This document shows, piece after piece, positions 10,918 to 29,780 of a stretch of DNA of 64,000 nucleotides. The position numbers and the translations under genes are program-made. The notes under the pieces are model-generated. The model worked only from the letters and a program-made list of their open reading frames with translations, had not been told where the DNA came from and ran no database searches. Origin of the DNA: Pirellulales bacterium (GTDB taxonomy: Bacteria > Planctomycetota > Planctomycetia > Pirellulales > PALSA-1355); NCBI GenBank assembly GCA_022844125.1, contig JALHMI010000014.1, positions 131,298-195,297 on the forward strand. The letters run 5' to 3'. How positions within the stretch are numbered: the first letter of the stretch is position 1; each line of letters starts with the position of its first letter.

Positions 10918-10982
10918 TCGCCATTTTTACAGCCGTGCGGTATCTCGGGGCACGTGAACGTCTCTTACGGAAGGAACTGGGG

Positions 10983-13086: not shown

Positions 13087-13259
13087 CAGCTTGCGTTTCC
13101 AAATGGTTCGCAAGGCAACTGCCACGTGTTGCCGTTTCCGTTCGGACCACGTGATTCGGCCACGCCCCTGCATGGATGAGGTGGCTTGTTTTGCGCGCTT
13201 GACCATTGGTAGGGAGTCGCGAGAATGATCACTTACACGTTATTCGAAGGGGGCATGCC

Positions 13260-14393
13260 ATGAGTGAGATGGGAGAGACGCTCTTAGCAATTGCAAACCA
13301 ATTGGAAGAAGTCGCGAAGAAACTGGAAACCTCAGAGGTTCAGTCGTCAATACAGCAACTAATGGAAGGCGTTACAAGAGCCACGAGTGCGTTCTGCGGC
13401 TCCTGGATTGGCTACCACTCGAGGGTGTACTACAACGGATTGAATCCGCCGCCCGCGGGCGCGACGTTTAATCCCGAGTATGGCCTGGTGCACATGAGCT
13501 ACAATCGCGGGACCGAGGGGGAATGGGTCGAGTTCCAATACGACGAGATATTTGGCGTTCTCAAAGGGCATACCGATGGGCTGAGCTTTGATGCCATGTC
13601 CGATATCGCCGAAGAGGTTCGCGCGGAAGCACAGCGACTTAGGGAGGAACTGCTCTCCTGTTTGACGGCCCTCAGCGCACAGTCAGATGACGAATATATC
13701 AAGCGGATGCTCAAGGAGGCGACAAGCACGACGCCCTTGAGCAGCTCCGACTTTATCGGTTACGTGCAGCCCAAGGGCTCTTTCTTTTCGCGCGATTCGA
13801 GAGCATACGCGGCCGGAATACAAGTGCCACCTCATATCAGCCTGGCGTCTCAGGTACAGACAATCACCGGGCAAATCGTCTTCGCAAACTCCCTCGCCTC
13901 AACAGCTCGTCACACTGCCTCGCATTTGAATAAGCGGAATGCGGCAAGTCGAGCCTTGAATGCAGTCGGGACCAAGGTCTTCATAGGGCATGGTCGCTCA
14001 CCACTGTGGCGCGATGTCAAAGACTTCGTGCAGGATCGATTGAATCTGGAATGGGATGAGTTCAACCGTGTTCCGGTTGCTGGCGTCACAAATATTGCCC
14101 GGCTCTCAGAGATGCTGAAGGACGCCGGGATCGCCCTGGTGATCATGACCGCAGAAGATGAGATGAAGGATGGAGTGGTTCGCGCAAGGGAGAATGTGGT
14201 CCACGAAGTTGGCCTCTTTCAAGGAAAACTAGGATTTACCAAAGCGATCGTTCTCCTCGAAGAAGGGTGCCAAGAGTTCTCGAACATCCAAGGGCTTGGC
14301 CAGATTCGTTTTCCGAAGGGGAACATCAAGGCTGTCTTTGAGGACATTCGGCTAGTGTTGGAACGAGAAGGAATGGTGGAGGAGGCTGACTAA
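13260..14393 (+). CDS. protein with a C-terminal TIR-like domain of the PF10137 (CAP12/PycTIR) type and an unknown N-terminal ~240-aa domain
   Basis: VFIGHGRSPLWRDVKDF...ALVIMTAEDEM...RARENVVHEVGLFQGKLGFTKAIVLLEEG...GLGQIRFP follows the family motif order. AAGGGGG RBS before ATG 13260. Confidence 0.75.
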   Translation: MSEMGETLLAIANQLEEVAKKLETSEVQSSIQQLMEGVTRATSAFCGSWIGYHSRVYYNGLNPPPAGATFNPEYGLVHMSYNRGTEGEWVEFQYDEIFGVLKGHTDGLSFDAMSDIAEEVRAEAQRLREELLSCLTALSAQSDDEYIKRMLKEATSTTPLSSSDFIGYVQPKGSFFSRDSRAYAAGIQVPPHISLASQVQTITGQIVFANSLASTARHTASHLNKRNAASRALNAVGTKVFIGHGRSPLWRDVKDFVQDRLNLEWDEFNRVPVAGVTNIARLSEMLKDAGIALVIMTAEDEMKDGVVRARENVVHEVGLFQGKLGFTKAIVLLEEGCQEFSNIQGLGQIRFPKGNIKAVFEDIRLVLEREGMVEEAD

Positions 14394-15892
14394 TGGCAAT
14401 CAAGGAGCAGGCAATGTACATGGTCGCCGTCTTCCCGTACTTGAGGACGAGCAACGTCGCGCGGTTCCGTGGCCTTGAGTTCCGGCCCTCAGACGACTTG
14501 GAGGGCCTAGGAGAAGACGAGAAAGCGGATGTCGAACAGATTCGAACGCTGTTCTACCTAAGGAATGGTTTTCGTTTGTCGAGCGTGACGTACGCGATGC
14601 TGCGCTTTAGCGATGACGAGGAGAAAGAAGATCGATTGCGGCGGCTGTCGGAGGCGCATCAACTGATCACATACCTGTACTCCGCGCCGGATCAAGTTCG
14701 CTGCGACGTGTTCCTTCATCAGGAGCACTCTGCCGTCTTTACTTTTGAGAAACATCCTGTGTGCACGTTGTTGGTACGGCCTGACGAACGTGTGGTTGTC
14801 GACGAAGGACAACCTCTACCGGAACCTGACCATAGGCACGAGATTCCTGGCTGGAACGTCACTCGTAACCTTCGGGAAACGTTCTATGGCGCTCCGGAGT
14901 TGCAAATCTATCCGACGCTTGGATGGATGGGCCTGAATCGAAGTCAGGATCTCTACTTGCACTTTATTGACGGACCGTTGTCAGGCAAGAACTGGCACGT
15001 AGTCGAGTTGCTCCGATCTTGGTATCCGCGGACACGTGGGCTCGATCGAGTAAAGGGTGGGATCTCTTGGTACAACCGGAGCGTATCGCAGATCGAAGAC
15101 CCCGACATGGAGATTGTCAGCTTGGCCGTTGCGTTTGAAAGCCTGCTAGGACTTGATCGGGCGAACAGGACAACCGATCGGTTTGTCGAATCAGTGCAAA
15201 CGCTGATCGGAAAAGAGGATCGCCTGGCACTATGGCTAAGACAGTTCTACAACGCACGATCTTCAGTCGTGCATACGGGCCAGCCTGAAGAGGTTATGTT
15301 TCTTCCCACTAAAGACGAGACGCCCTATCGGTCATTGGTTGATTATGGGCGACATATCTTCCGAGCTTGCGTCGAAACTGTGCTCCAAGGGGCGGCTATG
15401 GCCGACGCGATTGGGATCGTCGAGCTTCTGACGACCAATCGAGAACGCTTTGACAGTATTTGCAAGACGATGGCCGGGGCCGGCACTCCAGAATGGAGGC
15501 TCGCGGAAATTGCCCGAGACGTGGACGGTATCGAGCGCAACGAATACATCGTGGACAGATCGTTGAAGGTGGAGGTCCAGATGTGTGCCGTTCAGAAGGT
15601 TGCCGAGGCATACCTTGCGACGAACCCCGATGAACAGCAGGTCATACTAGACGCCTTGGCAAAAGTCGCAGCGATTAGAACCCGAGATGATCAGCTCAAA
15701 ACGTTGGGCGCAATCAAGGAACTGGATGATGCCTTCAAGAACGTCGGGCACGTTGAGGGGATTCGTTGGCCAAACATCCATTACACGGTCCGAAAGCTCG
15801 TGGAGACGGTTTGGAGGCGCTTTACCTTCGTCCACTGGCATCTTTTGGATGAGAAACGGAAGGCAGTGGAGAAAAGTGGCGGTAACGCATGA
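14393..15892 (+). CDS. HEPN-like protein (Rx4H motif), unknown N-terminal domain
   Basis: The start overlaps the upstream stop (TAATG). FYNARSSVVHTG gives R-x4-H in a helical C-terminal half, preceded by LAVAFESLLGLD. No other motif recognised. Confidence 0.6.
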   Translation: MAIKEQAMYMVAVFPYLRTSNVARFRGLEFRPSDDLEGLGEDEKADVEQIRTLFYLRNGFRLSSVTYAMLRFSDDEEKEDRLRRLSEAHQLITYLYSAPDQVRCDVFLHQEHSAVFTFEKHPVCTLLVRPDERVVVDEGQPLPEPDHRHEIPGWNVTRNLRETFYGAPELQIYPTLGWMGLNRSQDLYLHFIDGPLSGKNWHVVELLRSWYPRTRGLDRVKGGISWYNRSVSQIEDPDMEIVSLAVAFESLLGLDRANRTTDRFVESVQTLIGKEDRLALWLRQFYNARSSVVHTGQPEEVMFLPTKDETPYRSLVDYGRHIFRACVETVLQGAAMADAIGIVELLTTNRERFDSICKTMAGAGTPEWRLAEIARDVDGIERNEYIVDRSLKVEVQMCAVQKVAEAYLATNPDEQQVILDALAKVAAIRTRDDQLKTLGAIKELDDAFKNVGHVEGIRWPNIHYTVRKLVETVWRRFTFVHWHLLDEKRKAVEKSGGNA

Positions 15893-16097
15893 TTGTCAGT
15901 CGCTCGCGAAGATGCATGCGACCTTCGAAGGCGTGTGAACAAATGCAGCTCCTGCTGCACACGCTGGAAAAGTCGCTCGACCTGCCATCGTTCCAACCTC
16001 GCGCTGTTCATCGTCTCTCCTCCGCTTGACGATCTTAAACGTACCTGTTCAGTTGTCCAAATAGACGTATTCGCAAGTACAGGAGTGAGAGGGGACA

Positions 16098-16733
16098 ATG
16101 GGGGCTACACTCACTCAACAAATCGATGAGACGCTTGATCAGTTGGACAACGTTGAGTCCCTGTGCGATCTATTTTTTGGCAGAAGGCAATTTACAATTT
16201 ATAAGAACATCGCTGGATCGCTCCGCCTCTTGCTGACGGGCTCCAGTGGTCATGTCGGACTTGTGGAGACGGTACTTCCGGCTGGCGGCCTCTGGCGACT
16301 ACGGAAAATCCCCGACCCAATGACTCCTGCCGACATGCTCGTTCTTCCTGCCGCGGTTCTAGTCGAGAGTGGCGACGCCAAGGTGCGAGTAGGAAATGGA
16401 ACGGTGACCGTCAAAGAGCTTAACGTGAAAGGGGGGGCCGTTTCAGCGATGGACATCGGAGAGATGTTCGAGTCATCGTCTCCCGCACTACCGATTCGGG
16501 ACTGGCTACAGCAACCGTTTCTGCGCCCCACATGGACAATCAGGAGCTTCATCTCTGCCGTTGCGAACAAGGACGGTGGTGCGCACCTCGATCCCAACCC
16601 AACAATTGAAGCAATGCAGCGATGGGGACATCTGCACTGGCACTTAACGGCCGCATTGGCTCGCAGTGTTCTTCCGCAAGTCCGCGAACAACTGACGGCG
16701 ACGTATCCTAGCCACGTTCGTCCGGAGCGGTAG
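16098..16733 (+). CDS. hypothetical protein
   Basis: 211 codons with a purine-rich RBS. Only one notable motif: AVANKDGGAHLDPNP near the C-terminus. Confidence 0.6.
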   Translation: MGATLTQQIDETLDQLDNVESLCDLFFGRRQFTIYKNIAGSLRLLLTGSSGHVGLVETVLPAGGLWRLRKIPDPMTPADMLVLPAAVLVESGDAKVRVGNGTVTVKELNVKGGAVSAMDIGEMFESSSPALPIRDWLQQPFLRPTWTIRSFISAVANKDGGAHLDPNPTIEAMQRWGHLHWHLTAALARSVLPQVREQLTATYPSHVRPER

Positions 16734-16852
16734 GCACAAATCCGTCAAGCCAATGTGCTGCGTCCGCCCGATGACTGTTTTGCGCGTGCCAGTCATCGGA
16801 ACTTTCAACATCAAGATATAGACGCCGCGGAAACGTTACTGAAGGATGATAA

Positions 16853-17398
16853 GTGATGGTTCAAATCAAGTCAGGCAACCCTCGCTTCCGCTCGAAGGAG
16901 GACATAGCGGAGGACATCGCGTTCATCCTGCGTGCTCCCGTGAAGTACGGGACAAAGTTCGCGGTCTTAGCCGAAGCGATGTGGGTGTGGACTGAGTCGA
17001 CCGGAAAATATGAGGGGTGTCCTTACTGGACGCCGCTGGCTATGGCCGTGTATGCCGTCAATCGGATGCGAAAGCGGGGCAAGTATCACGGACTGCGGCA
17101 CGAGCACGTTGTTCCGAAGCGAGTCGTGATGGACATGCTTGAATCGCTTGAAACACCCACGCCCGAGGCAGTGCATGCAATTTGTGAGAAGTTTCTGCAC
17201 GCGGTAGTGGTTACCGTTGAGGAGGATTCTTTCCTGAATCTCGACTACCAAAGCACGATGCCGGCTGAGTTTGAAGATCTGACGAGCGAGCATTATCACG
17301 ATCCATGGTTGCGCTACCGGCGTTGCAGTATTCAATGGATGACGGAATCCGAGGCGCGCGAACGGCTCGTGAGAGCAGCTCCGCACCTTGCGTTGTGA
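16853..17398 (+). CDS. hypothetical protein (possible His-Me/HNH-like 'HEHVVPK' motif)
   Basis: 181 codons. GTG 16853 / ATG 16856 with GAAGGA upstream. The motif GLRHEHVVPKRVV is the only hint of a nuclease. Confidence 0.55.
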   Translation: MMVQIKSGNPRFRSKEDIAEDIAFILRAPVKYGTKFAVLAEAMWVWTESTGKYEGCPYWTPLAMAVYAVNRMRKRGKYHGLRHEHVVPKRVVMDMLESLETPTPEAVHAICEKFLHAVVVTVEEDSFLNLDYQSTMPAEFEDLTSEHYHDPWLRYRRCSIQWMTESEARERLVRAAPHLAL

Positions 17399-17468
17399 TT
17401 AACTTAGCTCGCACGCTTCGGGCTATGAAGTAGTCCTAGATCGCTTGCAGTATAGCGTCGTATGACGA

Positions 17469-18020
17469 CTACTTTCGTCCGCGTCGTTTCAGCAAATTGC
17501 GAATCGAACCAGGCCGAACACCGTATTTCCTGGCCAGAGCCGATTTGTTGTTCTTCTTAGGGTCGGCATCATATAGTCGCACGATTTCGGTTTCCTTGCC
17601 TCGGAGCTTACCTCGAAACGTATCACGGCCGGTTGAGTGGGTGCCGACAAGGCGACGGTGGCTGCGATTCTCTGCCGCACTTCCTAAGATGCAGGCGCTG
17701 AGACCGATTTCGCTCGGTAAATTGCCCGGAAGGTGACAGGCCAACAGTCCGACGGTCGCATCATTGCCGTTGACTCTCGCAAACGACTGTTGCACGGCAA
17801 GAGACGCCGTGATCCATTGCCCTTTCACTTTCCAACGGGGATACCCGTTCGGACCTGGGAAGTGATTTTGCCACTTCCATTCCCGTCGGGATTTGATCCA
17901 TCGTTCAAGGCAGGCATCCTTGTTAAAAAGGGAAATGCGGTGCAGCGGATACTCGACGCCGTCGTAAAACAGAACTGCGTTTGGAAGCTTCGTCGGCGTC
18001 ATTCGAATTTCTGCGGCCAT
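17469..18020 (-). CDS. HNH-type homing-endonuclease-like protein with a C-terminal HTH
   Basis: LLACHLPGNLPSEIGLSACILGSAAENRSH resembles the CH...C..G...N..H HNH_3-type core. The C-terminal EIVRLYDADPKKNNKSALARKYGVRPGSIRNLLKRR is HTH-like. Confidence 0.55.
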   Translation of the reverse strand: MAAEIRMTPTKLPNAVLFYDGVEYPLHRISLFNKDACLERWIKSRREWKWQNHFPGPNGYPRWKVKGQWITASLAVQQSFARVNGNDATVGLLACHLPGNLPSEIGLSACILGSAAENRSHRRLVGTHSTGRDTFRGKLRGKETEIVRLYDADPKKNNKSALARKYGVRPGSIRNLLKRRGRK

Positions 18021-18119
18021 GCCTTTTCCTGACCATCATGATCAACAAGTCGTTGAGTCAATCCAGATTGTACCTGATCTCCTTGCATCAGGGACTCCTT
18101 GCGCTACTCTGGCGTGTGC

Positions 18120-18326
18120 ATGACGAAGATTGTCAATTGCAGGCGATGCGGCGATTGCTTCTATGAAGGCAGGAACCCGAACTGCATTTCTGAGATCACC
18201 TACGATGAGTCGTGCTGCCCGAACTGCAATATCTGGGCATACTACCACACCTTTGAGATGCCGAATCAGGTGATGACACACCCCGCGCAGCCGTTTGATC
18301 GTGCAATCGAATTCACCCCGACATGA
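18120..18326 (+). CDS. small Zn-ribbon protein
   Basis: MTKIVNCRRCGDCF...CCPNCN gives two CxxC pairs. First gene of an overlapping chain. Confidence 0.45.
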   Translation: MTKIVNCRRCGDCFYEGRNPNCISEITYDESCCPNCNIWAYYHTFEMPNQVMTHPAQPFDRAIEFTPT

Positions 18327-18481
18327 AGCTCCGCCGTCCGACAGTCAAAGGCCCTCTCTTCGATCGCTGGACGGACCTCGCCGTAAAGCTCGGCTACGGT
18401 CGACGCGGCGGTCGCTCGAAGCTCCTCGATCTCCTCTTGGCGTATGCGGAGAGGCATTCTGATCTATTCCGCAAACGCTGA
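18323..18481 (+). CDS. 52-aa ribbon-helix-helix-like protein (below the ORF-track length cutoff)
   Basis: My translation: MKLRRPTVKGPLFDRWTDLAVKLGYGRRGGRSKLLDLLLAYAERHSDLFRKR. ATGA overlap with the upstream gene and TGATG overlap with the downstream gene. Confidence 0.45.
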   Translation: MKLRRPTVKGPLFDRWTDLAVKLGYGRRGGRSKLLDLLLAYAERHSDLFRKR

Positions 18482-18684
18482 TGATGCTCGAAATCTCTCT
18501 TGCGATCGGCTTGGTTCTGTACGGCTTGCTCAGCCTCGCGTGGATAATCGCGATGTGGCCGGCCATGCGTGAGCAAGAGCGCAGGCGTAAAGAAGCCTAC
18601 GAAGCTTTTGTGACTGATGCGATAACCGTGTTGTGGCATGACATGAAGAAGATGGACATCCAGCCACCCGAGTCAAAGAAATGA
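18481..18684 (+). CDS. small single-pass membrane protein
   Basis: LEISLAIGLVLYGLLSLAWIIAMW hydrophobic segment followed by a charged tail. ATGA overlap with the next gene. Confidence 0.5.
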   Translation: MMLEISLAIGLVLYGLLSLAWIIAMWPAMREQERRRKEAYEAFVTDAITVLWHDMKKMDIQPPESKK

Positions 18685-18869
18685 AGATCAAGACCCACTT
18701 CGTAAACGGCGTCTGCATCTGCTCGCACCCGAAGTGCAAGCGAGAGGCGATGGACGGAGCCAGGTTCTGCGCAGGGCATGCGTTCGGGAGGCAACCAATC
18801 GCTCCGGCCCTGGATCGGTACGACGGATTGCGGAGGCACAATTGTTTTCCGGGCTACGGCGGTAAATGA
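18681..18869 (+). CDS. small Cys/His-rich protein
   Basis: 62 codons (CICSHPKCKREAMDGARFCAGH). ATGA overlap at both ends. Confidence 0.45.
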   Translation: MKIKTHFVNGVCICSHPKCKREAMDGARFCAGHAFGRQPIAPALDRYDGLRRHNCFPGYGGK

Positions 18870-19153
18870 GGTCGATCGCGAATCCTCACTGGGATCACGT
18901 CGAAGAACACGAGCCGCCGAGGCCACGGCGGGTGATCAAACGCAAGAAGCCGCACTATCGTGGTTCGAAGTCGGGCTATATGGGTGTGAGTCACGCTGCA
19001 CACAGCAAGCGGAAGCCGTGGAAAGCGTATCATCGGAAAAGCGGTCAATACATCACGATCGGCTACTTCACGACGAAGGAGGCTGCGGCGAGGGCGTACA
19101 ATCGCGAGGCTCGACGACTGTTTGGGCGGGGGACGTTTCTGAACCCTGTGTGA
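18866..19153 (+). CDS. AP2/ERF-type DNA-binding domain protein
   Basis: YRGSKSGYMGVSH...KPWKAYHRKSGQYITIGYFTTKEAAARAYNREARRLFG matches the AP2 pattern seen in phage HNH-AP2 proteins. Confidence 0.75.
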   Translation: MRSIANPHWDHVEEHEPPRPRRVIKRKKPHYRGSKSGYMGVSHAAHSKRKPWKAYHRKSGQYITIGYFTTKEAAARAYNREARRLFGRGTFLNPV

Positions 19154-20035
19154 TCGGCGGTGGCGTCAGCACTTTCGGCACGACTTCACGCTCGAGAATC
19201 CGATCTTCCGCAGTGATCAGGACGTAGTGTATGGCGCCATTGTCCCGGGCAAACTCAATTGCCTCGTCGCGCATGTTTTGCATGAGCGACCATTCCTTTT
19301 CGTCCCAATAGAACGCCTCTCGGCTTGAGACTTCACAGTGAGCGGCGGTTCCACACATGCGCTTAATCATCGACGACCCTCGGTGACTGGAATGGAAGGG
19401 GAGCAAACAAGCATAGCTCAAAGCTTCCCGATTGGCGTTCGAGCTTCGATGCCGTGTACAATCCATCTCGTAAATGCCTTCAGTCTTCTCGCGTCTCGGC
19501 AAAGCAGCTTCTGCTTTTGGTCGAGTCGTTCGTGGTCTGCCTCTGCCGGACCACATGTTCTACGACTATCGCGGCGTTCCGGCATTCTTCAAGCCGAAGG
19601 AGTCGCTCGAAGCGTTCGATCACAATCCGTGGCTCGGTGCGGCGGTCCGACAGTTCGCGCACGAACTGGCTTGGACCCGTCGCTGGTCACCTTGTATGCT
19701 TGGTAAGCAAGCCCAGTCTATTTGTTCGGATAGCCTCACTGACCCGCTCCTGTCAGTGACGTCGGGTATTTATAGTACCCGGCGGCTTGAGGCTACTCAG
19801 ACGATGCAGGCACCGCTCAGGTGCAGCGAGTCAACTAACGATCGCAGTTTGATGATTGCAGTTTCGGAGCGGCGGGGCTCGGCATTGGCCCGCAGCACAA
19901 CCGTCCTCCAGCAATCCATCAACTGATCGACGATCCATGAGCTGACGTTAAGCATGGGAACACCCAATGCGTCTGTACGCCCCAAGCCGCCAACTTTTTG
20001 TCATTCAAGTACTACTTCATTCCTGAGCAAGGAGC

Positions 20036-20614
20036 TTGCCCCTGAGACGTGACGACCATTTCCAACCTGAACCCGCATTCTACGTCGATGAAAACGGGCA
20101 GCTCGATCCACTCTCGGCATTCCTACTCACCTTCTTTCGAGGTTGGGCTCTGATCGTCGTCGTCGGTGGCCCGCTGTGGGCGATCTGGATGATCCCTGAC
20201 TACATCAAGTTCTGGGAGAGGGACCCCGCTCTTGCCGCGGGAGTTTCTCAATGTTTTCTAGCGGTAGCCGCTCCTGTCTTTCTTGGGACCGCCCGATCCT
20301 GCCGAGTTGCCAACCTACGACATTACCAAACACGGACTCGCATTTCGCAGATCGCGAGTCTGGCGATCGGAACTGCTGGCGTTCTCGCGTTGGCTGGACT
20401 AGCCGTCTGGGATCTCATGAAGCTGAATGAATTCATTGCCTTCTACCGAGAGAATCCAAGCGGAGCCGTCATGTCGCTCATCTTCATCGGGAGCAGCGTG
20501 CTTAGTGGAATTCTCCTCGGGTGGTTCATCGGCAGATCGAATGACGCAGACTTGCAACGTTTCCGGGAACAAGTTCGGAGGGAACTTGAGCTTCGGAGTC
20601 AGCGTCATGCCTGA
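20036..20614 (+). CDS. integral membrane protein (about 4 TM segments)
   Basis: Hydrophobic segments WALIVVVGGPLWAIWMI, CFLAVAAPVFLG, IASLAIGTAGVLALAGLAVW and VMSLIFIGSSVLSGILLGWFI. TTG start; no in-frame ATG nearby. Confidence 0.6.
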   Translation: MPLRRDDHFQPEPAFYVDENGQLDPLSAFLLTFFRGWALIVVVGGPLWAIWMIPDYIKFWERDPALAAGVSQCFLAVAAPVFLGTARSCRVANLRHYQTRTRISQIASLAIGTAGVLALAGLAVWDLMKLNEFIAFYRENPSGAVMSLIFIGSSVLSGILLGWFIGRSNDADLQRFREQVRRELELRSQRHA

Positions 20615-21203
20615 ACCATTCCATCTCGACAGCCTCTTCAGGCGATACCCAGACTGGCCACTCTTGCGGGAAGCCGCTCGCCAGTGGCGACGCGAGCTGG
20701 GTCGTCGTCGTGCATGCGGGGCTCCACTGAAGGGAGCCTTCTATTGGATACCACTTCCTCTCGATACCGGGCAAGTGAAATGGGAAGTCCGGGAATTCTT
20801 TGACGACTGGCTACCCAGTTCAGATCACGTTCATGTCTGGGAGCATGTTCGCGACTACCTGGAATTCTGCTGGAAGCGGGATCTGAGCTCAGTCGAATAC
20901 TGCTGCTTGCCGAGAGGCCGCGTCTGCCAGAGCCAGGTGCGTACTGCTACCGGCGGAATGCGAAATGACTTTGTGATCTATCACGGCGGAGATGGACCCG
21001 CGAGCAACGATGACTTCGGACAAGTGCGAGCGAAGTTCAATCTCGCAGCGAACTCCAGAACAGCTTGGGATGAACACGAGCAAATGCTCCCAGAAGACAT
21101 CGCGTCGCTAACCGCAGAATTGGGTATCGATGTTCGTGCCGCTTTGGCTACCAAAGGCCAGCAGAGCGACGAACCATTCACAGCGAGGTTGTTTTATGGC
21201 TAA
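20607..21203 (+). CDS. hypothetical protein
   Basis: ATG 20607 overlaps the upstream stop by 8 nt (ATGCCTGA). 198 codons. No motif recognised. Confidence 0.55.
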   Translation: MPEPFHLDSLFRRYPDWPLLREAARQWRRELGRRRACGAPLKGAFYWIPLPLDTGQVKWEVREFFDDWLPSSDHVHVWEHVRDYLEFCWKRDLSSVEYCCLPRGRVCQSQVRTATGGMRNDFVIYHGGDGPASNDDFGQVRAKFNLAANSRTAWDEHEQMLPEDIASLTAELGIDVRAALATKGQQSDEPFTARLFYG

Positions 21204-21408
21204 GTGGTATGTCCGATCCGGGCGAGTGCAAGGTGTCGTCGTTGCCGATTCTCCCATTGAGGCTTGCCAGCAGATCGTTCGTGCCGATACCTACGAATCG
21301 GAACGCCTTTCTCCGGTCACCACGGTTTCGGAAACAGGCTTCACGATCACTGAAGATACCATCGTCATGCTGACGAGCCAGCTGCTGGGAGAGCCACATG
21401 GGATATGA
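21196..21408 (+). CDS. hypothetical small protein
   Basis: ATG 21196 overlaps the upstream stop (ATGGCTAA). 70 codons. Confidence 0.5.
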   Translation: MAKWYVRSGRVQGVVVADSPIEACQQIVRADTYESERLSPVTTVSETGFTITEDTIVMLTSQLLGEPHGI

Positions 21409-21556
21409 AATATTTGGCCTACTGTATGTGCTGCGAAGCTGGCTGGGCTTCATGGAGGAATGCGAGCTAGCGGAAAAACTTGACGAGGAGCTGGCAATAG
21501 AGCGTCACCTGGAAACTTTGAATGAGGATGAACTTCGCAAACTACTCAATGACTAG
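21398..21556 (+). CDS. 52-aa hypothetical protein (below the ORF-track cutoff)
   Basis: My translation: MGYEIFGLLYVLRSWLGFMEECELAEKLDEELAIERHLETLNEDELRKLLND. Overlaps the upstream gene by 11 nt and the downstream ATG 21549 by 8 nt. Confidence 0.4.
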   Translation: MGYEIFGLLYVLRSWLGFMEECELAEKLDEELAIERHLETLNEDELRKLLND

Positions 21557-22556
21557 CCCCCCACTGCCATACGGCATCAACGATCTGTGCCCAGAACTAT
21601 GCGTCACCCCTGGCCCACCCAAGCGCATTCGCTGCTTCGTGAAGGGTTGCAGCCATATGCTCCGGCCCCCCACGAGGCGAGGCGGTGGCGATGTCTGCCC
21701 TGACCATGGAATTCGCTGCCATTCCTCAGGCACCTACTCCTATGCAGACGTACGCCGGAATCTGATTGTCGACGCCGACCTCTTCGCGACTCGTGTGGTG
21801 GGGCATCCCTTCAAGTACGAAAGCGACCGCTTCGGCTCCGAGAATTCCGAGGACGCTCTGAGCTGGAATGTGTTTCGCTCGTTGCAGAGGGAAGGTCAGC
21901 TGCACAAAGTCGCACAGCTGACCACCGGCGTAGTGAGTGCCGAGGAACCCATCCTCTATCTCTGGGGGCTGCGAACTTCGGACGACAGTTTTGAACCGTG
22001 GGATTTTCTGATCGCTGCCCGAGAGCGGTTCGAGCAGAACCTTCCGGTGAAACGGCCGCTCACGGAACCGGACATCGCTCTGCATCTACCAGGAGAATAC
22101 TTGATTCTGATCGAAGCCAAGTTCACCAGTCCGAACTCGTACTATGTCGATGGGCCTCGGCAGAACGCCGTATCGCTCACGAAGTCCGAACTGCTCGACA
22201 TCTATTGGGATCCTTGCGTCCGATCGCTCGACCGCGAGAAGGCGAGGCAGGCTGAGCGAGTCCATTACCAGCTTTGGCGGAACCTAGTTTTTGCGGAATG
22301 GATGGCCAGCCAGGATTCACGCATGACGAGTCCGTACCTAGTTAGCCTGACACGCTCTGGACATGAGCAGGGGAGTTGCTCGCAGTTTCGCGAGCTGGCA
22401 GATGCCTCCAGTGACGACCGTTTTCAACATCGCAGTTGGGAGGAAGTCACTGTCAGTTGCTGCAGTACCGCCGGCGTGCTCGATCGCCTGGCCGCATATT
22501 GCAAGGCCAAGACCGCGCATCTAAAACGAGCCTTTTATCTGGTTGGAGATGCATAG
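21549..22556 (+). CDS. Zn-ribbon plus PD-(D/E)XK-like protein, paralogue family 2 of 3
   Basis: CFVKGCSHML...VCPDHGIRCH, then SEDALSWNVFRSL and PDIALHLPGEYLILIEAKFTSPN (D...ExK). The ORF track starts at 21522; ATG 21549 fits the overlap pattern. Confidence 0.6.
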   Translation: MTSPPLPYGINDLCPELCVTPGPPKRIRCFVKGCSHMLRPPTRRGGGDVCPDHGIRCHSSGTYSYADVRRNLIVDADLFATRVVGHPFKYESDRFGSENSEDALSWNVFRSLQREGQLHKVAQLTTGVVSAEEPILYLWGLRTSDDSFEPWDFLIAARERFEQNLPVKRPLTEPDIALHLPGEYLILIEAKFTSPNSYYVDGPRQNAVSLTKSELLDIYWDPCVRSLDREKARQAERVHYQLWRNLVFAEWMASQDSRMTSPYLVSLTRSGHEQGSCSQFRELADASSDDRFQHRSWEEVTVSCCSTAGVLDRLAAYCKAKTAHLKRAFYLVGDA

Positions 22557-22596: not shown

Positions 22597-23598
22597 TTAT
22601 GGCGGATCGAATAGAGTGAGCTGGGAAGTTGGGACCAGTCGGCGTTCGCCGTCATCTAGTTCGACGCGCGTATTATGGCGACCCGAACGAACTACAGTGC
22701 CGAGTAGTCCAGTTCCCCCTTCGACGCTATACCGGATGCGTACGCCAGCCCTATACGACTGTGAAGGTGTGTTCTGATCTGCATAGATTTGCTCTCGATT
22801 GAACTCGAAGCAAGCAAGGCTATCGCAAAGCACACCGGGATATAACTGAGCCCAGGCTTCCAGACGACTCCAAGTCAAGTAACCAAGCGTTCCGCAGTTC
22901 CACGCTGGGAGAGATGACTTTGAATCGTCACGCAACGGTTGTGCAAAAAACGAGTTCATGTTCTGATCAGAATCCGGAACGATGCAGAGGAACCAAGCCG
23001 AGTCAGAATCGCAATATGGTCGCAGTTCATCGACAGCGCGCAGCACGACCGGATTTGCTCCGATGCGCCATCTGGAAGACACTGCATCCGGATGACATAC
23101 TTCGCCTTGAATTTGGCGAATCAGCATCTGCTTGCGGTAGAGTTGGACGAACAGGTTAGATGACCTGCGCTGATCATCGCCCGTACGACTGATGTGTTGG
23201 GCAAACCGACTCCATTCATCTTCAATCAGCCACTGGTTCCGCTGAGCGGTCTTTACCTTCGCTTCGATGAACACTGCTTGCTTGCGTTTTCCCTGCAGGA
23301 GAATTAATGCGTCAAGATCACCAAAATCCGAAAAAGACTGTTCGAGAATGATTTGCGCGGACTCTATATCTTGCCAATCAGGTGGAGAGGGGCAATTCGG
23401 GAAGCGAGTCAGATTTAAAAACTCAAGCAAATACTTGAGCCCATCGACCTGGCGACGGATCTCGAACAGCAGGGAATTCAATATTCCCCGTTCCGAATAG
23501 CCTCGGATTGATATCGACATCGCCCGCGCGTCCTCAAAAGAGCCCGTCAGGATTCGACCGCAACAGGCTAACAAGAGCGATTGCCATAAATGGGTCAC
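22597..23598 (-). CDS. PD-(D/E)XK-like protein with a C-terminal SH3/KOW-like tail, paralogue family 3 of 3
   Basis: SERGILNSLLFEI ... DLDALILLQGKRKQAVFIEAKVKT (D...ExK). The C-terminal YRAGVRIRYSVEGGTGLLGTVVRSGRHNTRVELDDGERRLVP is beta-rich. Alternative ATG at 23520. Confidence 0.6.
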   Translation of the reverse strand: MTHLWQSLLLACCGRILTGSFEDARAMSISIRGYSERGILNSLLFEIRRQVDGLKYLLEFLNLTRFPNCPSPPDWQDIESAQIILEQSFSDFGDLDALILLQGKRKQAVFIEAKVKTAQRNQWLIEDEWSRFAQHISRTGDDQRRSSNLFVQLYRKQMLIRQIQGEVCHPDAVSSRWRIGANPVVLRAVDELRPYCDSDSAWFLCIVPDSDQNMNSFFAQPLRDDSKSSLPAWNCGTLGYLTWSRLEAWAQLYPGVLCDSLACFEFNREQIYADQNTPSQSYRAGVRIRYSVEGGTGLLGTVVRSGRHNTRVELDDGERRLVPTSQLTLFDPP

Positions 23599-23672
23599 TC
23601 ATAAGAAGACCCACTGTTGGCAGTGATAGGCCTTAGAGTTTGCAGCTGACCAAGCCTCTGGGATTGCTGCGA

Positions 23673-24047
23673 ATGGCCAACAAACGGACCGACGCCGAGC
23701 GCCGGACACGACAGATCGAACGATTCAGTCGGCTCTTGCGCGTACTGAATTGCATCAGCGGCTCAGGACGATGGGATGTCGACTCACTCGCTAGGGAGCT
23801 GGAATGTTCGCCTCGAACCGTTCATCGACTGTTACAGACCCTGTCGATGGCGGGGGTTCCGTGGTACTTCGACGATACGACGAGAGCCTACAAGATTCGC
23901 GCCGGATTCCGATTTCCGTTGCTCAGTAAAACCGACGCCGCTCGGTCCGAAGAGGTTGCCTGTTCGCTCCGAGAAGCTGAAGCGGCTCTGATAGAGGCTG
24001 AGTCTGTAGTCGCCAGACTTCATGAACTCTGCCGTCAACTTCGATAG
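23673..24047 (+). CDS. HTH-only paralogue of the WYL regulator at 8081-9106
   Basis: AERRTRQIERFSRLLRVLNCISGSGRWDVDSLARELECSPRTVHRLLQTLSMAGVPWYFDD aligns colinearly with residues ~14-75 of the WYL regulator. The protein ends after ~124 aa with no WYL domain. Confidence 0.7.
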   Translation: MANKRTDAERRTRQIERFSRLLRVLNCISGSGRWDVDSLARELECSPRTVHRLLQTLSMAGVPWYFDDTTRAYKIRAGFRFPLLSKTDAARSEEVACSLREAEAALIEAESVVARLHELCRQLR

Positions 24048-24202: not shown

Positions 24203-24925
24203 TCAAGCAGAGGGGGCTGGAGCGACTGGAGCTTCCGGGGCTGCATCAGGTGCAGGCGGGGCCGGTGGGCTTGGCGACCAATGTTCGTGGCTGTCTGGCC
24301 AGCGTTTGATGGAATGCATCAGTTTTCGTTCGCGGGGAAACTCTGGAGCCATGCTTAACCACTGACTCAGCGCGATCCTCTCGTGTTTCTCGAGTTGCAC
24401 TCCGGCAACCGCACCCTTCAAGAGCTCCTCAGCGATGGGCTCAATTGCGCATTCGGTCTCAAAGGCTACCCATTCCAACAGCCTGATTCTGTCGTGGTCG
24501 GTTAGGACTTTACCATCTGCGATCTTCTGAATTGCGTGCTTCGGCTGCTCGGCGACGACCATCACAGTGCGCTGCTTGCGTTTACGCGGCACGGCTCGAA
24601 CATAAGCGTTGAGCCAACGTTCCAATGCATCAACAGCAGGGGGGGCCGCAAACCGATGCTCAACTACTTGCTCCAGCGCATCTGCCGTCCGATCATCAAT
24701 GACGACTTGCTTTGCATATGCGGTACCGCCACGTACCCATACCGCGCCAATCCCTCCGGCAATAAACGCCAAGCCCAGGCCACAAAGCACAAGTGCTGAA
24801 TCACGGAGCAGGGTGCCGTGAGCTTGCCGCCGCCGCAGAAGCACAAGTGTCAATGCACTCGCAGCCAGTACCACAAAACCAGCGATGATGAGGAGCGGGG
24901 CCAGGGAGAAAGTTTCGGTAGACAT
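24203..24925 (-). CDS. membrane protein (2 N-terminal TM segments, Pro/Ala-rich tail)
   Basis: LAPLLIIAGFVVLAASALTLVLL and ALVLCGLGLAFIAGGIGAVWV. Starts 27 nt after the upstream gene's stop on the minus strand. Confidence 0.65.
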   Translation of the reverse strand: MSTETFSLAPLLIIAGFVVLAASALTLVLLRRRQAHGTLLRDSALVLCGLGLAFIAGGIGAVWVRGGTAYAKQVVIDDRTADALEQVVEHRFAAPPAVDALERWLNAYVRAVPRKRKQRTVMVVAEQPKHAIQKIADGKVLTDHDRIRLLEWVAFETECAIEPIAEELLKGAVAGVQLEKHERIALSQWLSMAPEFPRERKLMHSIKRWPDSHEHWSPSPPAPPAPDAAPEAPVAPAPSA

Positions 24926-24952
24926 AGTCCTGCCTCTTGACGTTGCAAAGGT

Positions 24953-26971
24953 TTAATGGGTAGCGCCGTCGATCTCCGCTGAAAGCCACTTAACATCCTG
25001 TAGTTGCTCAAGCTCGTAAGCCGGAAACTGCAGGCGAGGCGGCGCGAAGGCGTCAAAGGCAAAAGAGTGCGTTTCAGTTCCATCAGTCGAGATGGATGCC
25101 TGATACCGGGCATTAGCCGGATCAGTAATCAACAAGTAAACGACCAATTGCCCTGATGCATTGAGGAACTGGTTAATGTCGATGTTTTGGGATGTGACGG
25201 CACCAATCTGAAGTTCAACAGCATCAAGCTCTATGGCTCGCACCAGCAGATCGACCCCTTTCGGTTGAATCTCTGGAAGGGCGAGCGCCTGTGCAAGTCT
25301 CCATGTCGCGGTTCGAACATGCTTGGTTACTGTATATTCCACCGTGATTTGTTCCGCGATTCTCGGGTCTCGCTCCAGGAGATCCGCTCGTCTGACATAG
25401 TAGACGACGCAACTATCTAGGTCGTGGGAGACGTGCCGCTCAAACGGAACTCGCGAGACGGACAAGTACTTCACGCTGAGAATTGCGGGCTCCCGATAGA
25501 TCGTTTTTGTCAGATCTGCAAGTCGTTCAAGCTCCGTGATTTCTTCATAAACCACACCTTCATGAGTGAACGTGTGTTCGCTCCCATCATTGATGCCGTC
25601 AACTGGCGTAGCGTCGAGGCGCAGGAATAGCGGGCGCGCTAGCGATGTAGTTGCCGGAGGGTTGTCGTCCCCGTTCACCACAGGCTCTCGCTCATCCGTA
25701 CTGCCTTCGTCTGGGGTGGATCCCTCGCGGACAGGAACGTCGTCACCTGTCTCGCTGTCAGAATCCCGTACGTGGATCGGCCAGCTGTTGACCTCGGCGA
25801 TAGGCTCTAAGAAGTTGGGGTGCAGATATGTCTCTGTGTGTGCGGTCTGATAGACCATGTCCACAGCTCCATCTCGCAAGACAAGCCCATCTCTTGTTCG
25901 CAGTTGCCAGGCGATGTCCACTGCTGGACCGATCCCGTAATTCGAAATCTCGAATGTTCCTGGCGTCAGGAACTCTACGAAAATGTCGGGCGTATCCCTT
26001 AGGAGTGCCCAGGGAAAACGCATGTGCTTCGTGAGTTCAAGGTCAACAGTGACGGTCCCAATGAATTGCGATCGATAGGGCGACTTATTGCGAAAGACAA
26101 CTCTCCACAGCTGGTGGTGCGTTGATCCTCGTGCCGATTGCTTGGTTTCCACCTGTGTCTGTTGTGCGACGTAGGTCGCCTCTGGACCGTGAAAAGCCGA
26201 AGGATCCGCGGTCGGTGCAGAAGGGGCGGGCGCCGCATCCTCCGCTTCAGGAAAGCCTCCCTCGGGCCGTTTCGTTGGAGCCGAGTCCTGATACTTTTCG
26301 ATTGGTGGGCGGTCGTTGAGATGAGCGGGAAAGGTGCTACTGAGGCCAAAATAGTAATCTGAGAACTGATCGAAGTATCCCAACAGATCGATGGGAGCCG
26401 TCGATATTGGTTCCGCGTGGCGATCCTGAACAATCGTCTGTGGCAACAGAACTTGCGTAGATTCCGGCTCGAGACCGCGTTGGATTCCCAAATAGAACGC
26501 CGCGATGGCACTGCCAGTTAGTAGCAGCGTGCCGATCGCTACAAAGGCATAGTGCCGAAATGTGGCCCAACGTTTCAGCCGCACTGTCCCTAGTTCAAGC
26601 TGACGCTCTAACTCAGCTAGAGACTTTTCCGCTGACTCAACAGCTTCTAGCGACATTTTAGCTTGAGGCAACTCAACTAGGCGAACGAGTTGCTTTCGGG
26701 CATCGGAAAGACTCTGGCGGAAATCGGCTCTGCGCCACCGTTCGACATTGACAATGCATCTCTCGAACCATTCTGCGACGAACAAATCGCACGTGTTGAC
26801 CAGTCGTTGATGTTCGCACGCGAGCTCAGGCGCGTTGTTGCGGATGACGCAGACGTAGCGACGTATGTCGCGTCGAGTTCGCCTGATCATCGCCGTTGCC
26901 CGCGCCACAGCAATCTGATCGTAGTTCGACTTCGCAGGACTGAGCAGGCTGAGAAGTGCTGTGTGATTCAT
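24953..26971 (-). CDS. 672-aa single-pass membrane protein, unknown domains
   Basis: N-terminal helical/coiled region, TM segment YAFVAIGTLLLTGSAIAAFYLGI, a Pro-rich linker, then a ~400-aa C-terminal region with no recognised motif. Confidence 0.7.
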   Translation of the reverse strand: MNHTALLSLLSPAKSNYDQIAVARATAMIRRTRRDIRRYVCVIRNNAPELACEHQRLVNTCDLFVAEWFERCIVNVERWRRADFRQSLSDARKQLVRLVELPQAKMSLEAVESAEKSLAELERQLELGTVRLKRWATFRHYAFVAIGTLLLTGSAIAAFYLGIQRGLEPESTQVLLPQTIVQDRHAEPISTAPIDLLGYFDQFSDYYFGLSSTFPAHLNDRPPIEKYQDSAPTKRPEGGFPEAEDAAPAPSAPTADPSAFHGPEATYVAQQTQVETKQSARGSTHHQLWRVVFRNKSPYRSQFIGTVTVDLELTKHMRFPWALLRDTPDIFVEFLTPGTFEISNYGIGPAVDIAWQLRTRDGLVLRDGAVDMVYQTAHTETYLHPNFLEPIAEVNSWPIHVRDSDSETGDDVPVREGSTPDEGSTDEREPVVNGDDNPPATTSLARPLFLRLDATPVDGINDGSEHTFTHEGVVYEEITELERLADLTKTIYREPAILSVKYLSVSRVPFERHVSHDLDSCVVYYVRRADLLERDPRIAEQITVEYTVTKHVRTATWRLAQALALPEIQPKGVDLLVRAIELDAVELQIGAVTSQNIDINQFLNASGQLVVYLLITDPANARYQASISTDGTETHSFAFDAFAPPRLQFPAYELEQLQDVKWLSAEIDGATH

Positions 26972-27001
26972 TGGAAACCGGGAGTGGTTAGTTACTCGAC
27001 C

Positions 27002-28705
27002 CTATGACTCGACTTGGTCAACGACCTCGAGTTCAATTCCTAAGACTGCCTCGAAGCCAGTATCCTCAATCGTGAATGTCCATCCGTTCTTCGCTTTTTG
27101 CATGACGTCTTTAGCATTCGGCACGAACCCTTGCTTTGCGAACTCTTCACTTGCATGAAGGAAGAGTTTCGGTTGAGCACCAAGCAATGCCCGGACGTAG
27201 TACTGCTTGTTGAAGACCACGTTGTCCGAAAATCCGATCCCAAAGGAGTCTCGCTCGCCAACGTAAAACTCAAGACGCAGTACAAGGTCACCTGACGTTA
27301 CTTCGGAAGTATCGAGCCATCCTTCCCAGATCAGCCGATCGCTGTCAGCCCAATCAAAAGCGAGCTGTGAATCAGAGAGGTCGGGAGTCTGAAATGGTCC
27401 GTAGCAGTTCTCAGCTTCCTTGCTTTGGTGAAACAGATCGAAGTCAACCTTCCGTGGCTTGATCGATACGCCAAAGAAGATTTCGCTCTTGCCAAACCAA
27501 TCAAGGCCCCGTTTGACTTTCGCCTTGACCAGCCGAAGCTTTGCTCGGACGTTGCCGCAAAAGAATCGACTTGCAACCTCAAAGGCTTCACGCGACGTCA
27601 CGAGGGAGTCCTCGCCGCCGTGACACTTATGAACGAAAGTCCGTGGGCAGCCAGGGATCTGCGCGAAGGCCTGCTTAACCAAACCGTCGCTGCGGTTGTA
27701 GGTGGGGCCATACTCTCCGTCCACCGCGAACAGGCGATTGAGAATGGACGCGAGCTTCGTACCATACGATTTGTAGTTTGTGCCCACCACAGTCAACAAG
27801 CGATGCGGCGGGAAGAACCTGCTCAGATTGCTGAACGCGGTCGGTTGGGTCTTGTTCGCTTGAAACTCGGGGCTGAAGTGGTTGAGTTCGTCGGCCGCCT
27901 CGAAGGCAAGCCACTGTCGCAAGACCTGAAACGAAATGCCTTGGTGTGGGGTACCAAGTGTGACGACCTTGTTGATGCACGTGGCGGCACTGCGACCCTG
28001 CTTGGGATAGGCCGCCTGGATTGCCTCGCGCACAATGAGCCCGCCCATTGAATGCGCGATAATGTTTACCTTCGGAGGCTGGACGGCTCCTTCAATAGTT
28101 GCCAATGCTCGGATGAACTCGATTAGGCGAGTGAGTGCCTCGCCATAGAGGCTGAGGCGTCGATCATCGAGATCGTAGTAACGGAAGACCCACAGCGTCC
28201 TTGTCGGATCTGGGCTTCTTTCCAGTAACGACAGAGCCATTCCCGGATCAACAACCAACTTGCCGCCGGAAAAGAAGTGTTTGGGGAAGGCGGCCAATCT
28301 AGGTGGGAGCGTAGTTGGGAAGTCCACGACAGGCCTTCGGTAGTATCCCACGACATTCGTCGCATCCTGATACTTCCAGCCGGACTTCAAGAACCGCAAC
28401 ACTAAGCCTTCGTAAATGTAGTTTTCGCCACGCTTTTGTGGATAGACAGTTCCGTCATTGAAGCCTTGGTAGGCAACTCTCTTTTCATCCTCGACATCGA
28501 GCCCACCAAACCCGCGGATGAGGATGATGGGCTGTGGAAGGCGAGTGGCGACGTCAGAGGTGTCGCTCAAGTAGCGATGAGTGTCGCGAGCGGGACGTAC
28601 AGCCACGATTGGAACTCCGAGAAATCTTGTCGCCCAGAAACTTGGTAGATGCAGATGGCGTGTTAGCAGCGAGGCAGCCACCGTCCCTCTACGAGCCCCC
28701 AACAC
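27002..28705 (-). CDS. lipase/esterase-like alpha/beta hydrolase (PGAP1/DUF676-like) with an unknown ~200-aa C-terminal domain
   Basis: Nucleophile elbow NIIAHSMGGLIVREA. Candidate Asp (RSDGLVKQ) and His (VHKCHGGEDSLV). GTG start. Confidence 0.75.
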   Translation of the reverse strand: MLGARRGTVAASLLTRHLHLPSFWATRFLGVPIVAVRPARDTHRYLSDTSDVATRLPQPIILIRGFGGLDVEDEKRVAYQGFNDGTVYPQKRGENYIYEGLVLRFLKSGWKYQDATNVVGYYRRPVVDFPTTLPPRLAAFPKHFFSGGKLVVDPGMALSLLERSPDPTRTLWVFRYYDLDDRRLSLYGEALTRLIEFIRALATIEGAVQPPKVNIIAHSMGGLIVREAIQAAYPKQGRSAATCINKVVTLGTPHQGISFQVLRQWLAFEAADELNHFSPEFQANKTQPTAFSNLSRFFPPHRLLTVVGTNYKSYGTKLASILNRLFAVDGEYGPTYNRSDGLVKQAFAQIPGCPRTFVHKCHGGEDSLVTSREAFEVASRFFCGNVRAKLRLVKAKVKRGLDWFGKSEIFFGVSIKPRKVDFDLFHQSKEAENCYGPFQTPDLSDSQLAFDWADSDRLIWEGWLDTSEVTSGDLVLRLEFYVGERDSFGIGFSDNVVFNKQYYVRALLGAQPKLFLHASEEFAKQGFVPNAKDVMQKAKNGWTFTIEDTGFEAVLGIELEVVDQVES

Positions 28706-28801
28706 TGTGCGAAGTTGAGCTGAACTCCTCAGGACCGCGGTCCCGCGATCAACGCGGAACTTGCCCCATCGCCCTGCCTGGGGAATCCCCTCTAATCTCG
28801 A

Positions 28802-29677: not shown

Positions 29678-29780
29678 TTGTCAACTCGCTGATGTGGGGA
29701 TCGCTTTTCTGAAACGTCTCAGCTTAGGTACCTGCCCGTGGGATTTGGCACTGTCGCCTAAGAGTCCTGCACTCCTGACC

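Follow-up and report, generated by a model that had tools for sequence, protein, structure and literature searches.

A predicted Zn-ribbon nuclease gene with putative WYL-type operator boxes and a structured RNA leader in a planctomycete accessory island

Five small genes that overlap at every junction pose a simple question: do their products form one machine of fixed composition, or has a single conserved gene acquired changing partners? The genes, designated g1 to g5, occupy positions 20036–22556 on the forward strand of a 64,000-nucleotide stretch of contig JALHMI010000014.1 (assembly GCA_022844125.1, positions 131,298–195,297) from a Pirellulales bacterium of the phylum Planctomycetota; this whole stretch is referred to as the window. 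An earlier note, made from the sequence alone, had interpreted the cluster as a membrane component coupled in fixed stoichiometry to a nuclease-fold protein. Comparison with related loci points to the second option. The broadly conserved core gene of the module, and the only such gene among the five, is g5, which encodes a Zn-ribbon protein with a predicted nuclease domain; together with g5, the conserved core consists of an operator box and, in many lineages, a leader of ~230 nucleotides (nt). The interpretation favoured here, with slightly more confidence than doubt, is that the locus represents an inducible conflict-nuclease operon belonging to a small WYL-type regulon and residing in a mobile, defence-rich planctomycete island.

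The operon and its predicted nuclease gene

The first gene, g1 (20036–20614), has a TTG start and encodes a membrane protein of 192 amino acids (aa) with four transmembrane (TM) segments. It is followed by g2 (20607–21203; 198 aa), whose ATG lies inside the open reading frame (ORF) 20427–21203 and which specifies an alpha/beta protein of an uncharacterised family, by g3 (21196–21408), a 70-aa protein of unassigned function, and by g4 (21398–21556), whose 52-aa product has an amphipathic N-terminus and an acidic helical C-terminus. The series ends with g5 (21549–22556; 335 aa), in which a Zn ribbon is combined with a predicted PD-(D/E)XK nuclease of the REase-ARP family (REase, restriction endonuclease). 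The coordinates and the overlaps of 8, 8, 11 and 8 nt given in the earlier note were reproduced, and the junctions read, in gene order, ATGCCTGA, ATGGCTAA, ATGGGATATGA and ATGACTAG. Shine-Dalgarno elements precede g2 (GGAG, spacing 8 nt), g3 (GAGG, 7 nt) and g4 (GGGAG, 6–7 nt). None belongs to g5, so that its translation would depend on coupling, through re-initiation, after g4. At the head of the cluster AAGGAG is placed 1–2 nt before the TTG (20036) and 7–8 nt before a CTG (20042), and the arrangement AAGGAG-N7-CTGAGACG is kept in L089, the closest related locus; this spacing and its conservation imply that the true start of g1 may be the CTG. As the 8-nt g4/g5 overlap and the g3/g4 overlap recur in L089, and the g1/g2 overlap recurs in L001, the overlaps are not fortuitous. 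The cluster behaves as an operon.

Among the five products, g5 alone has a family match. It scores 30.6 bits (E 3.3e-07) against Pfam PF22558 (REase-ARP), for which the gathering cut-off is 27, with an alignment that spans only profile positions 118–251 of 270. A set of 5.8 billion proteins contains 611 homologues, many of them full-length and 55–74% identical; PF22558 is precomputed for most of the 120 that were listed, and the few with an organism label derive from Planctomycetota or Pirellulales. In an alignment of 42 homologues the residues C29, C34, C50, H53, E101, D102, D175, E189 and K191 are invariant, as are Q241, W243, R244 and N245, and C57 and H58 are nearly so. The Zn ribbon and the D...ExK signature that had been noticed by eye are both invariant in these homologues, and D175…E189-x-K191 provides the motif that defines the PD-(D/E)XK superfamily. 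The AlphaFold2 model (pLDDT 93.7, pTM 0.92) places the catalytic residues at two strands, 176–180 and 184–190. The top Foldseek matches in the PDB are REases, namely Nt.BspD6I, the FokI cleavage domain and HincII, at levels that are not significant (E 0.6–3, TM-score ~0.2), and a sequence search of the PDB with the g5 profile found no relative and only chance cytochrome c matches. The predicted identity of g5 as a Zn-ribbon PD-(D/E)XK protein is supported by its sequence and, weakly, by the fold search. That it is not a housekeeping nuclease is likewise supported. The nuclease identity suggested in the earlier note thus finds support, and g5 can be given a family name, REase-ARP being a named, computationally predicted family.

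The other four genes are lineage-specific add-ons with a patchy distribution, as emerged when 88 g5 loci, and later a few more, were searched with g1–g4. The complete series leader-g1-g2-g3-g4-g5 is present in the window only. L089, whose g5 is 74% identical, has leader-g1-g2 remnant-g3-g4-g5; the remnant consists of ~40 degenerate C-terminal codons from which the DxHE motif is gone. L001 displays WYL-leader-g1-g2-g3-g5, L090 g2-g3-lipoprotein-45-aa TM ORF-g5 and L093 g1-like-g2-lipoprotein-g5. In L092 and L010 the order is Cys-rich protein-g2-g5, and in L017 and L020 WYL-leader-small acidic ORF-g2-g5. The remaining loci examined have g5 without any of g1–g4. Overall, g2 accompanies g5 in approximately eight independent loci, g1 and g3 are each found in about three other loci and g4 in one.

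This distribution bears on the view advanced in the earlier note, an obligate, membrane-anchored nuclease complex of five subunits in fixed stoichiometry. The four overlapping junctions, the collinear order and the position of g1, always directly before g2, would suit such an assembly. However, relatives lack g1, g2, g3 or g4 in varied combinations, a lipoprotein gene and a 45-aa TM ORF are inserted in some of them, and in L010 and L092 an operator box separates g2 from g5. The complex appears decidedly improbable, and fixed stoichiometry is not supported for components of which only one is broadly conserved and another, g2, has decayed in the closest relative. The conservation of gene order, proposed as a check, had a divided outcome: the genes are collinear wherever they occur, but components are gained or lost and are missing in most loci.

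A toxin–antitoxin or addiction system faces related difficulties. Here a toxic g5 would be neutralised by the co-translated g4, g3 or g2, and the pair would stabilise the island or trigger abortive infection once synthesis ceases. The tight coupling and the lack of a Shine-Dalgarno element at g5 are compatible with this idea, as are the small acidic proteins that recur just upstream of the nuclease (g4 in L089, acidic ORFs in L017 and L020) and a distant g2 relative beside a SAM-lyase-like gene, a setting as for a hijacked antitoxin; the phage nature of the array that contains it is weakly supported and is not relied on. Nevertheless, most g5 loci are devoid of g2, g3 and g4, with the nuclease gene directly after the box or the RNA, which indicates that g5 is tolerated without these proteins. 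L089 has lost g2 and retained g5 intact, and g2-family members also occur far from any g5. On this evidence the addiction scenario is quite unlikely.

Operator boxes, candidate regulators and leader RNA

The regulatory frame of the operon was absent from the earlier note and lies mostly outside 20036–22556. The promoter/operator region (19735–19781, forward strand) contains an inverted repeat, ACTGAC-N7-GTCAGT, that includes box 2 (19740–19756), a second inverted repeat, CGGGTA-N7-TACCCG, and an AT-rich -10-like element, TATTTATAGT. It is kept in the window, L089, L001, L017, L020, L003, L006, L008, L014 and L023. The same operator recurs twice in the window. Box 1 (TGACCCACTGCTGGCAG; 8014–8030, forward strand), an exact match to the consensus TGACCCRC-N3-KGNCAG, is located 51 nt upstream of a gene for a transcription regulator with a helix-turn-helix (HTH), a WYL and a WCX domain (8081–9106, forward strand; Pfam WYL, WCX and HTH_11, PADLOC WYL). 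Box 3 (AGACCCACTGTTGGCAG; 23607–23623, forward strand) is found in the divergent intergenic region between n6 and an HTH gene, n7, 17 nt before the start of the latter. With up to one mismatch allowed, the 64-kb window contains three boxes against 0.45 expected, a number attained in 1 of 100 shuffles, and all three are situated at promoters: those of the WYL gene, the operon and n7. In related loci the box was detected in 17 of 73, either 60–146 nt before g5 or ~35 nt before the RNA; L010 and L092 have it between g2 and g5, and L090 harbours an equivalent of box 3 at the same intergenic position.

Two candidate regulators are associated with this operator. Homologues of the WYL protein (46–62% identity) adjoin g5, upstream or downstream, in approximately two dozen of the 88 loci, and in L001 the orthologue (62% protein and 67% DNA identity) is positioned ~170 nt before the operator. 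These associations make the gene at 8081–9106 the probable cognate regulator of the operon. The second candidate, n7 (23640–24047, forward strand), encodes a 135-aa HTH protein (Pfam HTH_PafC, HTH_IclR and HTH_11) homologous to the DNA-binding N-terminus of WYL regulators, matching PADLOC WYL at positions 2–73 only, and is devoid of the WYL sensor domain. It is kept downstream of g5 in the closest relatives: in L090 the HTH protein encoded there, likewise of 135 aa, is 62% identical to n7, and an equivalent of 125 aa adjoins P0002.

Between the operator and g1 lies a structured RNA leader of ~230 nt (19780–20010, forward strand), a putative cis-regulatory 5' untranslated region (UTR) of the operon. 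This conserved DNA was first seen as a peptide-like string shared by ORF translations from several loci. The ORF 19474–19926, which overlaps the leader, was considered as a coding sequence and rejected, as it has no family match and its ends are not conserved. Rfam 15 (4227 families), searched with both strands of 19300–20300, gave no match at E<=10. A covariance model, R1, was built from five copies of the leader. R1 located the element in 10 other loci, in each case upstream of g5 and on its strand; a truncated copy in L053, contributed by nhmmer, brings the number to 11. The full-length copies retrieved by R1 are those of L003, L006, L008, L014, L022 and L023, and in five of these no gene intervenes between leader and g5.

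The case for a conserved RNA rests on compensatory change. In an alignment of 15 sequences fitted to the covariance model, with refined structure, 88.1% of cells are paired, compared to 71% in shuffles and 34–43% in controls with slid partners. Both members have changed in 43 of the 66 pairs, and none of 500 shuffles reaches any of the observed measures. The core hairpins and a long-range helix with compensatory changes also emerge, independently, from a plain MAFFT alignment. The window copy has a minimum free energy of -92.9 kcal/mol (z = -4.45), and its DNA is 80.5% identical to that of L001, as against 67% for the WYL coding sequence. Several pairs are mostly G-U, which would be A-C mismatches on the opposite strand, and this asymmetry indicates that the forward strand is transcribed. 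The element begins a few nt after the -10-like sequence and ends 5–25 nt before the ribosome-binding site of the next gene, be it g1, an acidic ORF or g5; such a position corresponds to the geometry of a cis-acting 5' leader. In several loci a partly conserved U-rich tract lies after the closing helix, but no terminator-like site was predicted at this position, and the search of the leader gave no clear expression platform. The conserved hairpin yielded only chance 22-nt matches in viral contigs, and a literature search for WYL together with structured RNA returned nothing relevant. Judged by its covariation, the leader appears to be a previously undescribed RNA at the 5' end of a transcription unit, absent from Rfam.

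A short variant of ~140–150 nt, in which the central domain is replaced by a small hairpin, was observed downstream of g5 (L047, 5191–5330; L048, 2707–2857; L050, 2888–3038; L076, 878–1017). The operon that this variant precedes is a different one: it opens with a paralogue of the gene located upstream of g5, and next comes a gene for a metallo-beta-lactamase-fold protein.

Omega RNAs and bridge RNAs are examples of RNAs encoded on the 5' side of the nuclease or recombinase with which they work. By analogy, the leader might be a stable trans-acting partner of g5, serving as a scaffold, inhibitor or guide, rather than a cis-acting leader. Its association with g5 and not with whichever gene comes next, its better conservation compared to neighbouring coding DNA and the U-rich tract after the closing helix would all be in keeping with this role. 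Yet the RNA has no hypervariable single-stranded segment that resembles a guide, its variable regions keep their pairing, the ribosome-binding site of the next gene follows within 5–25 nt, most g5 genes have no leader and the short variant heads a different operon in L047. A trans-acting function is, on balance, highly improbable.

The variable partners g1–g4

The earlier note had described g1 as having about four hydrophobic segments, and four were found (residues 26–44, 65–83, 106–124 and 143–161), shared by the orthologues in L089 (53% identity), L001 (34%) and L093 (27%). The gene always lies directly upstream of g2 or of its remnant and has no match in Pfam, PADLOC, NCBIfam or PHROG. Homologues of g3 are present in L089 (71%), L001 (41%) and L090 (46%). 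Comparison of the window with L089 gives dN/dS values of 0.25 for g1 and 0.26 for g3.

The 52-codon g4, proposed in the earlier note, has gained credibility. Its single homologue, a 55-aa ORF of L089, likewise overlaps g5 by 8 nt, and the pair shows purifying selection (dN/dS 0.33 at dS ~1.2), the other two frames being full of stops. A deep search with g4 recovered only g4 itself. On these sequence comparisons it is probably a real, very lineage-restricted gene, either very young or fast-changing. Its last 48 nt (21509–21556 in the window, 1568–1615 in L089) are identical at 43 of 48 positions, synonymous sites included, far above the remainder of the gene. This hints at additional constraint, for example from a g5 re-initiation site or local RNA structure.

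The g2 family is much larger. A word-indexed search gave 20 close, unannotated relatives, and an exhaustive profile search 469 representatives at E<=1e-3, 197 of them at E<=1e-10. Invariant positions are G43, W47, P49, W59, F64, H74, W78, L101-P-R-G-R105, G127, D129, P131, F144, D155, H157 and E158; this set, with its His/Arg/Asp/Glu cluster, looks like a binding or active site. The AlphaFold2 model (pLDDT 90, pTM 0.85) matches nothing in the PDB or BFVD at E<1e-3 by Foldseek, the best TM-score being ~0.3. Pfam searches of 41 diverse members disclosed no domain and no informative fusion, and cluster look-up of 10 members returned 'hypothetical protein' only. No g2 was detected in metagenomes by a single-sequence locus scan or in viral contigs by an alignment-based scan, and P0136, a relative from a phage context, had no tblastn match in phages. 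Away from g5, family members occur in L091, within the partly phage-like array with the SAM-lyase-like gene mentioned above, in L094 beside IS66, and in L095 beside methyltransferase, deaminase, NUDIX and TnsA-like genes.

Further small genes were noted around these partners. A Cys-rich family with many CxxC pairs ('CPSCGSP.CTEYRANAFVCQNCDGTFRW') recurs beside g2-g5 pairs, either before g2 or after g5 (L017, 8878–10239; L020, 8831–9832; L010, 2–277; L092, 5560–5955). In L001 the interval 5818–6001, between g3 and g5, could encode a peptide composed of a TM segment and a charged helix, like the 45-aa ORF of L090; the frame has no ATG, GTG or TTG start and may begin at a non-canonical codon, contain an assembly error or belong to a gene in decay. 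On the far side of g5, the convergent gene n6 (22597–23598, reverse strand) encodes a second PD-(D/E)XK-like protein (D..FIEAKV) with a weak PDDEXK_4 match. A homologue (30% identity) is found downstream of g5 in L070. It was considered as a sixth operon component and is probably not one, as its slot is occupied in the closest relatives by unrelated genes of 293 and 379 aa.

Island context, known systems and the defence interpretation

The setting of the operon is that of an accessory, defence-like region, as the earlier note had maintained: TIR/PDC-S35, Cas4-like and WYL genes are all present, along with DUF932 and STAND-kinase genes. Relative to L001, a 10.7-kb insertion (9106–19735) separates the WYL gene from the operator and leader. 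It carries a TIR protein (13206–14393; Pfam CAP12/Pycsar TIR, PADLOC PDC-S35 and TIR effector), whose stop codon abuts a 499-aa ORF (14393–15892), and several ORFs without a family match. In a sister contig of L089 a Bub-type ubiquitin-like system occupies the equivalent place. On account of these two cargoes the interval between the WYL gene and the leader looks like a hotspot for defence genes. Upstream of the WYL gene are DUF932 (3742–4719) and a Cas4-like PDDEXK_1 nuclease (5465–6295). A sister contig of L090 displays the order PDDEXK_1...WYL...g5...HTH...integrase, an arrangement suggesting that the region in its entirety is an integrative mobile element. The window itself has no identified integrase, and base composition gives no sign of foreign origin. 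Beside g5 relatives are found the Bub ubiquitin-like system, ParE, PIN, integrases and IS66, and these neighbours change between close relatives.

How does the locus relate to known systems? The name REase-ARP traces to Iyer, Burroughs, Anantharaman and Aravind (Viruses 2022; PMC9503650), who reported a new REase domain and assigned to it the part of accessory effector in predicted conflict systems. These systems are centred on an ADP-ribosylglycohydrolase (ARG), have WYL or Nudix regulators and include planctomycetes among their lineages (PMC9503650). Similarities are evident: g5 passes the gathering score of REase-ARP, keeps the PD-(D/E)XK residues, is linked to WYL and is planctomycete, and the regulator at 8081–9106, which shares its box with the operon, supplies the WYL component. 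The partners g1–g4 and the leader RNA are undescribed in that work (PMC9503650). There are further differences. No ARG was found by Pfam in the window ORFs between ~1 and 43 kb or in the gene tables of the relatives, and the same search space contained no coupled phosphatase of the rhodanese-phosphatase, calcineurin-like, HD or HAD type. Neither the locus nor the relatives examined have a chaperone or ARPP gene close by, and g5, in contrast to the rapidly evolving REase of those systems, evolves slowly and has an N-terminal Zn ribbon. The absence of ARG and phosphatase and the slow REase argue that the locus is not an ARG-centred system.

BrxR with BREX and CapW with CBASS are examples of WYL-regulated defence operons. 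They share with the locus an HTH-WYL-WCX regulator, an inverted-repeat operator before the regulator's own gene and before the effector operon, and a location in defence islands. Unlike them, the cargo here consists of one Zn-ribbon REase accompanied by small, variable partners and not of BREX or CBASS, a long structured leader is placed between operator and genes, and a sensor-less HTH paralogue has the same box. By analogy, the locus would work most like a WYL-repressed defence operon of the BrxR/CapW type. Like riboswitches and other cis-leaders, the leader is a conserved RNA with several covarying helices that opens the transcript, stops just before the first ribosome-binding site and precedes varied first genes; it differs from known riboswitches in having no Rfam match and in heading a nuclease operon that is also under a predicted protein repressor. 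As for the nuclease itself, type IIS cleavage domains (FokI, Nt.BspD6I) have a PD-(D/E)XK core and are the best, though non-significant, structural matches of g5 (E 0.6–1.2, TM-score ~0.2), which, unlike type IIS enzymes, has no methyltransferase partner and no recognition domain besides the Zn ribbon. What is new is the Zn-ribbon REase as conserved cargo, the sensor-less HTH paralogue that shares the box, the leader and the orphan partners g1–g4.

The defence interpretation is founded on the predicted role of REase-ARP, the WYL link and the island context. Several observations weigh against it. The effector role of REase-ARP is itself a prediction. Searches of g1–g5 against PADLOC-DB 2.0 gave no family at E<=1, and NCBIfam and PHROGs offered no usable match. 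The nuclease gene evolves slowly, with a dN/dS of 0.16 versus L089 and a mean column identity of 52% over 42 homologues, unlike the family described as 'rapidly evolving' and many defence effectors. Most g5 loci have no detectable leader copy, and most have no strict operator box. The WYL gene of the window lies 10.7 kb from the operon operator, so that the cognate regulator could instead be n7. Finally, WYL regulators also control DNA-damage responses, and a defence role is therefore not the sole option.

PafBC and DriD, both WYL proteins, activate chromosomal DNA-damage repair regulons and are thought to sense single-stranded nucleic acid. The locus might accordingly be a DNA-damage or stress module in which the WYL protein acts like PafBC or DriD, switched on by single-stranded DNA. 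In that case g5, although carried on the island, would be no anti-phage effector but a nuclease induced by damage for repair or processing. The regulator has the same HTH-WYL-WCX architecture with a PafC-type HTH match, g5 is strongly conserved under strong purifying selection, and none of g1–g5 has a PADLOC match. Single-sequence locus scans located g5 in four genome loci; no copy was found in viral contigs by single-sequence or alignment-based scans, or in plasmids by tblastn. On the other hand, the targets of this regulator are placed on a variable mobile island and not in a chromosomal repair regulon, g5 is found in islands with TIR, toxin–antitoxin, ubiquitin-like defence, IS and integrase genes among changing neighbours, and it matches no curated NCBIfam model. 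A damage module is accordingly unlikely, and the conflict-nuclease interpretation is retained.

Beyond the existence of the boxes and the RNA, we infer every step of the following mechanism. The WYL regulator, possibly with or against n7, would hold the three promoters shut at their boxes, and the sensor-less n7 may also act on the same three promoters. A signal derived from nucleic acid, arising from infection or DNA injury, would bind the WYL domain and release the promoters. The leader RNA may impose a second checkpoint after initiation, as a 5' UTR that responds to a ligand or a protein. Coupled translation would then yield g1–g5, and g5 would cut the invader's DNA or the cell's own in a form of abortive infection. 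The four-TM g1, g2, g3 and the acidic g4 would be lineage-specific modulators or extra effectors, not obligatory subunits. A bolder version is speculative and doubtful: the leader, a riboswitch or a protein-responsive leader, would represent a new class of sensory RNA, forming with the WYL regulator a two-key gate on a defence nuclease, and g2, as a new enzyme or ligand-binding fold, would produce or remove the signal. If true, this would link RNA-based sensing to bacterial immunity.

The surroundings contain other genes of note. Just upstream of the operator region, a 95-aa ORF (18866–19153) matches an AP2 domain weakly (E 9e-4), the score being below the cut-off. Downstream, a run of genes on the reverse strand (24203–33321) encodes a 240-aa TM protein, a 672-aa unknown, a PGAP1-like alpha/beta hydrolase, a papain-family C1 peptidase, an 836-aa unknown and an EEP-family nuclease/phosphatase, and may be another conflict-type operon. 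It is followed by a 1580-aa protein (33662–38404) that combines a Ser/Thr kinase, an nSTAND1 NTPase and a C-terminal FGE-sulfatase domain, and by a giant ORF of 5773 aa (43866–61187), the centre of which (48–60 kb) has a G+C content of 0.61–0.62 versus 0.54–0.58 in the remaining window.

WYL regulators are emerging as common switches of defence, and the signal that they sense and the way in which leakiness of toxic effectors is controlled are general questions. The locus offers a compact regulon in which to consider them, comprising an operator present in three copies, an HTH paralogue without the sensor, a covarying leader outside the RNA databases and a conserved, predicted Zn-ribbon nuclease with a model of high confidence. 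In addition, g2 defines an orphan-fold family with hundreds of members for which no annotation was found. Of all these parts, the leader RNA and the g2 family most deserve attention. Should the leader bind a small molecule or g5, it would represent a checkpoint on an immune effector of a kind not described before; if it does not, the locus would exemplify how accessory genes accrete between a conserved promoter and leader and a conserved effector.

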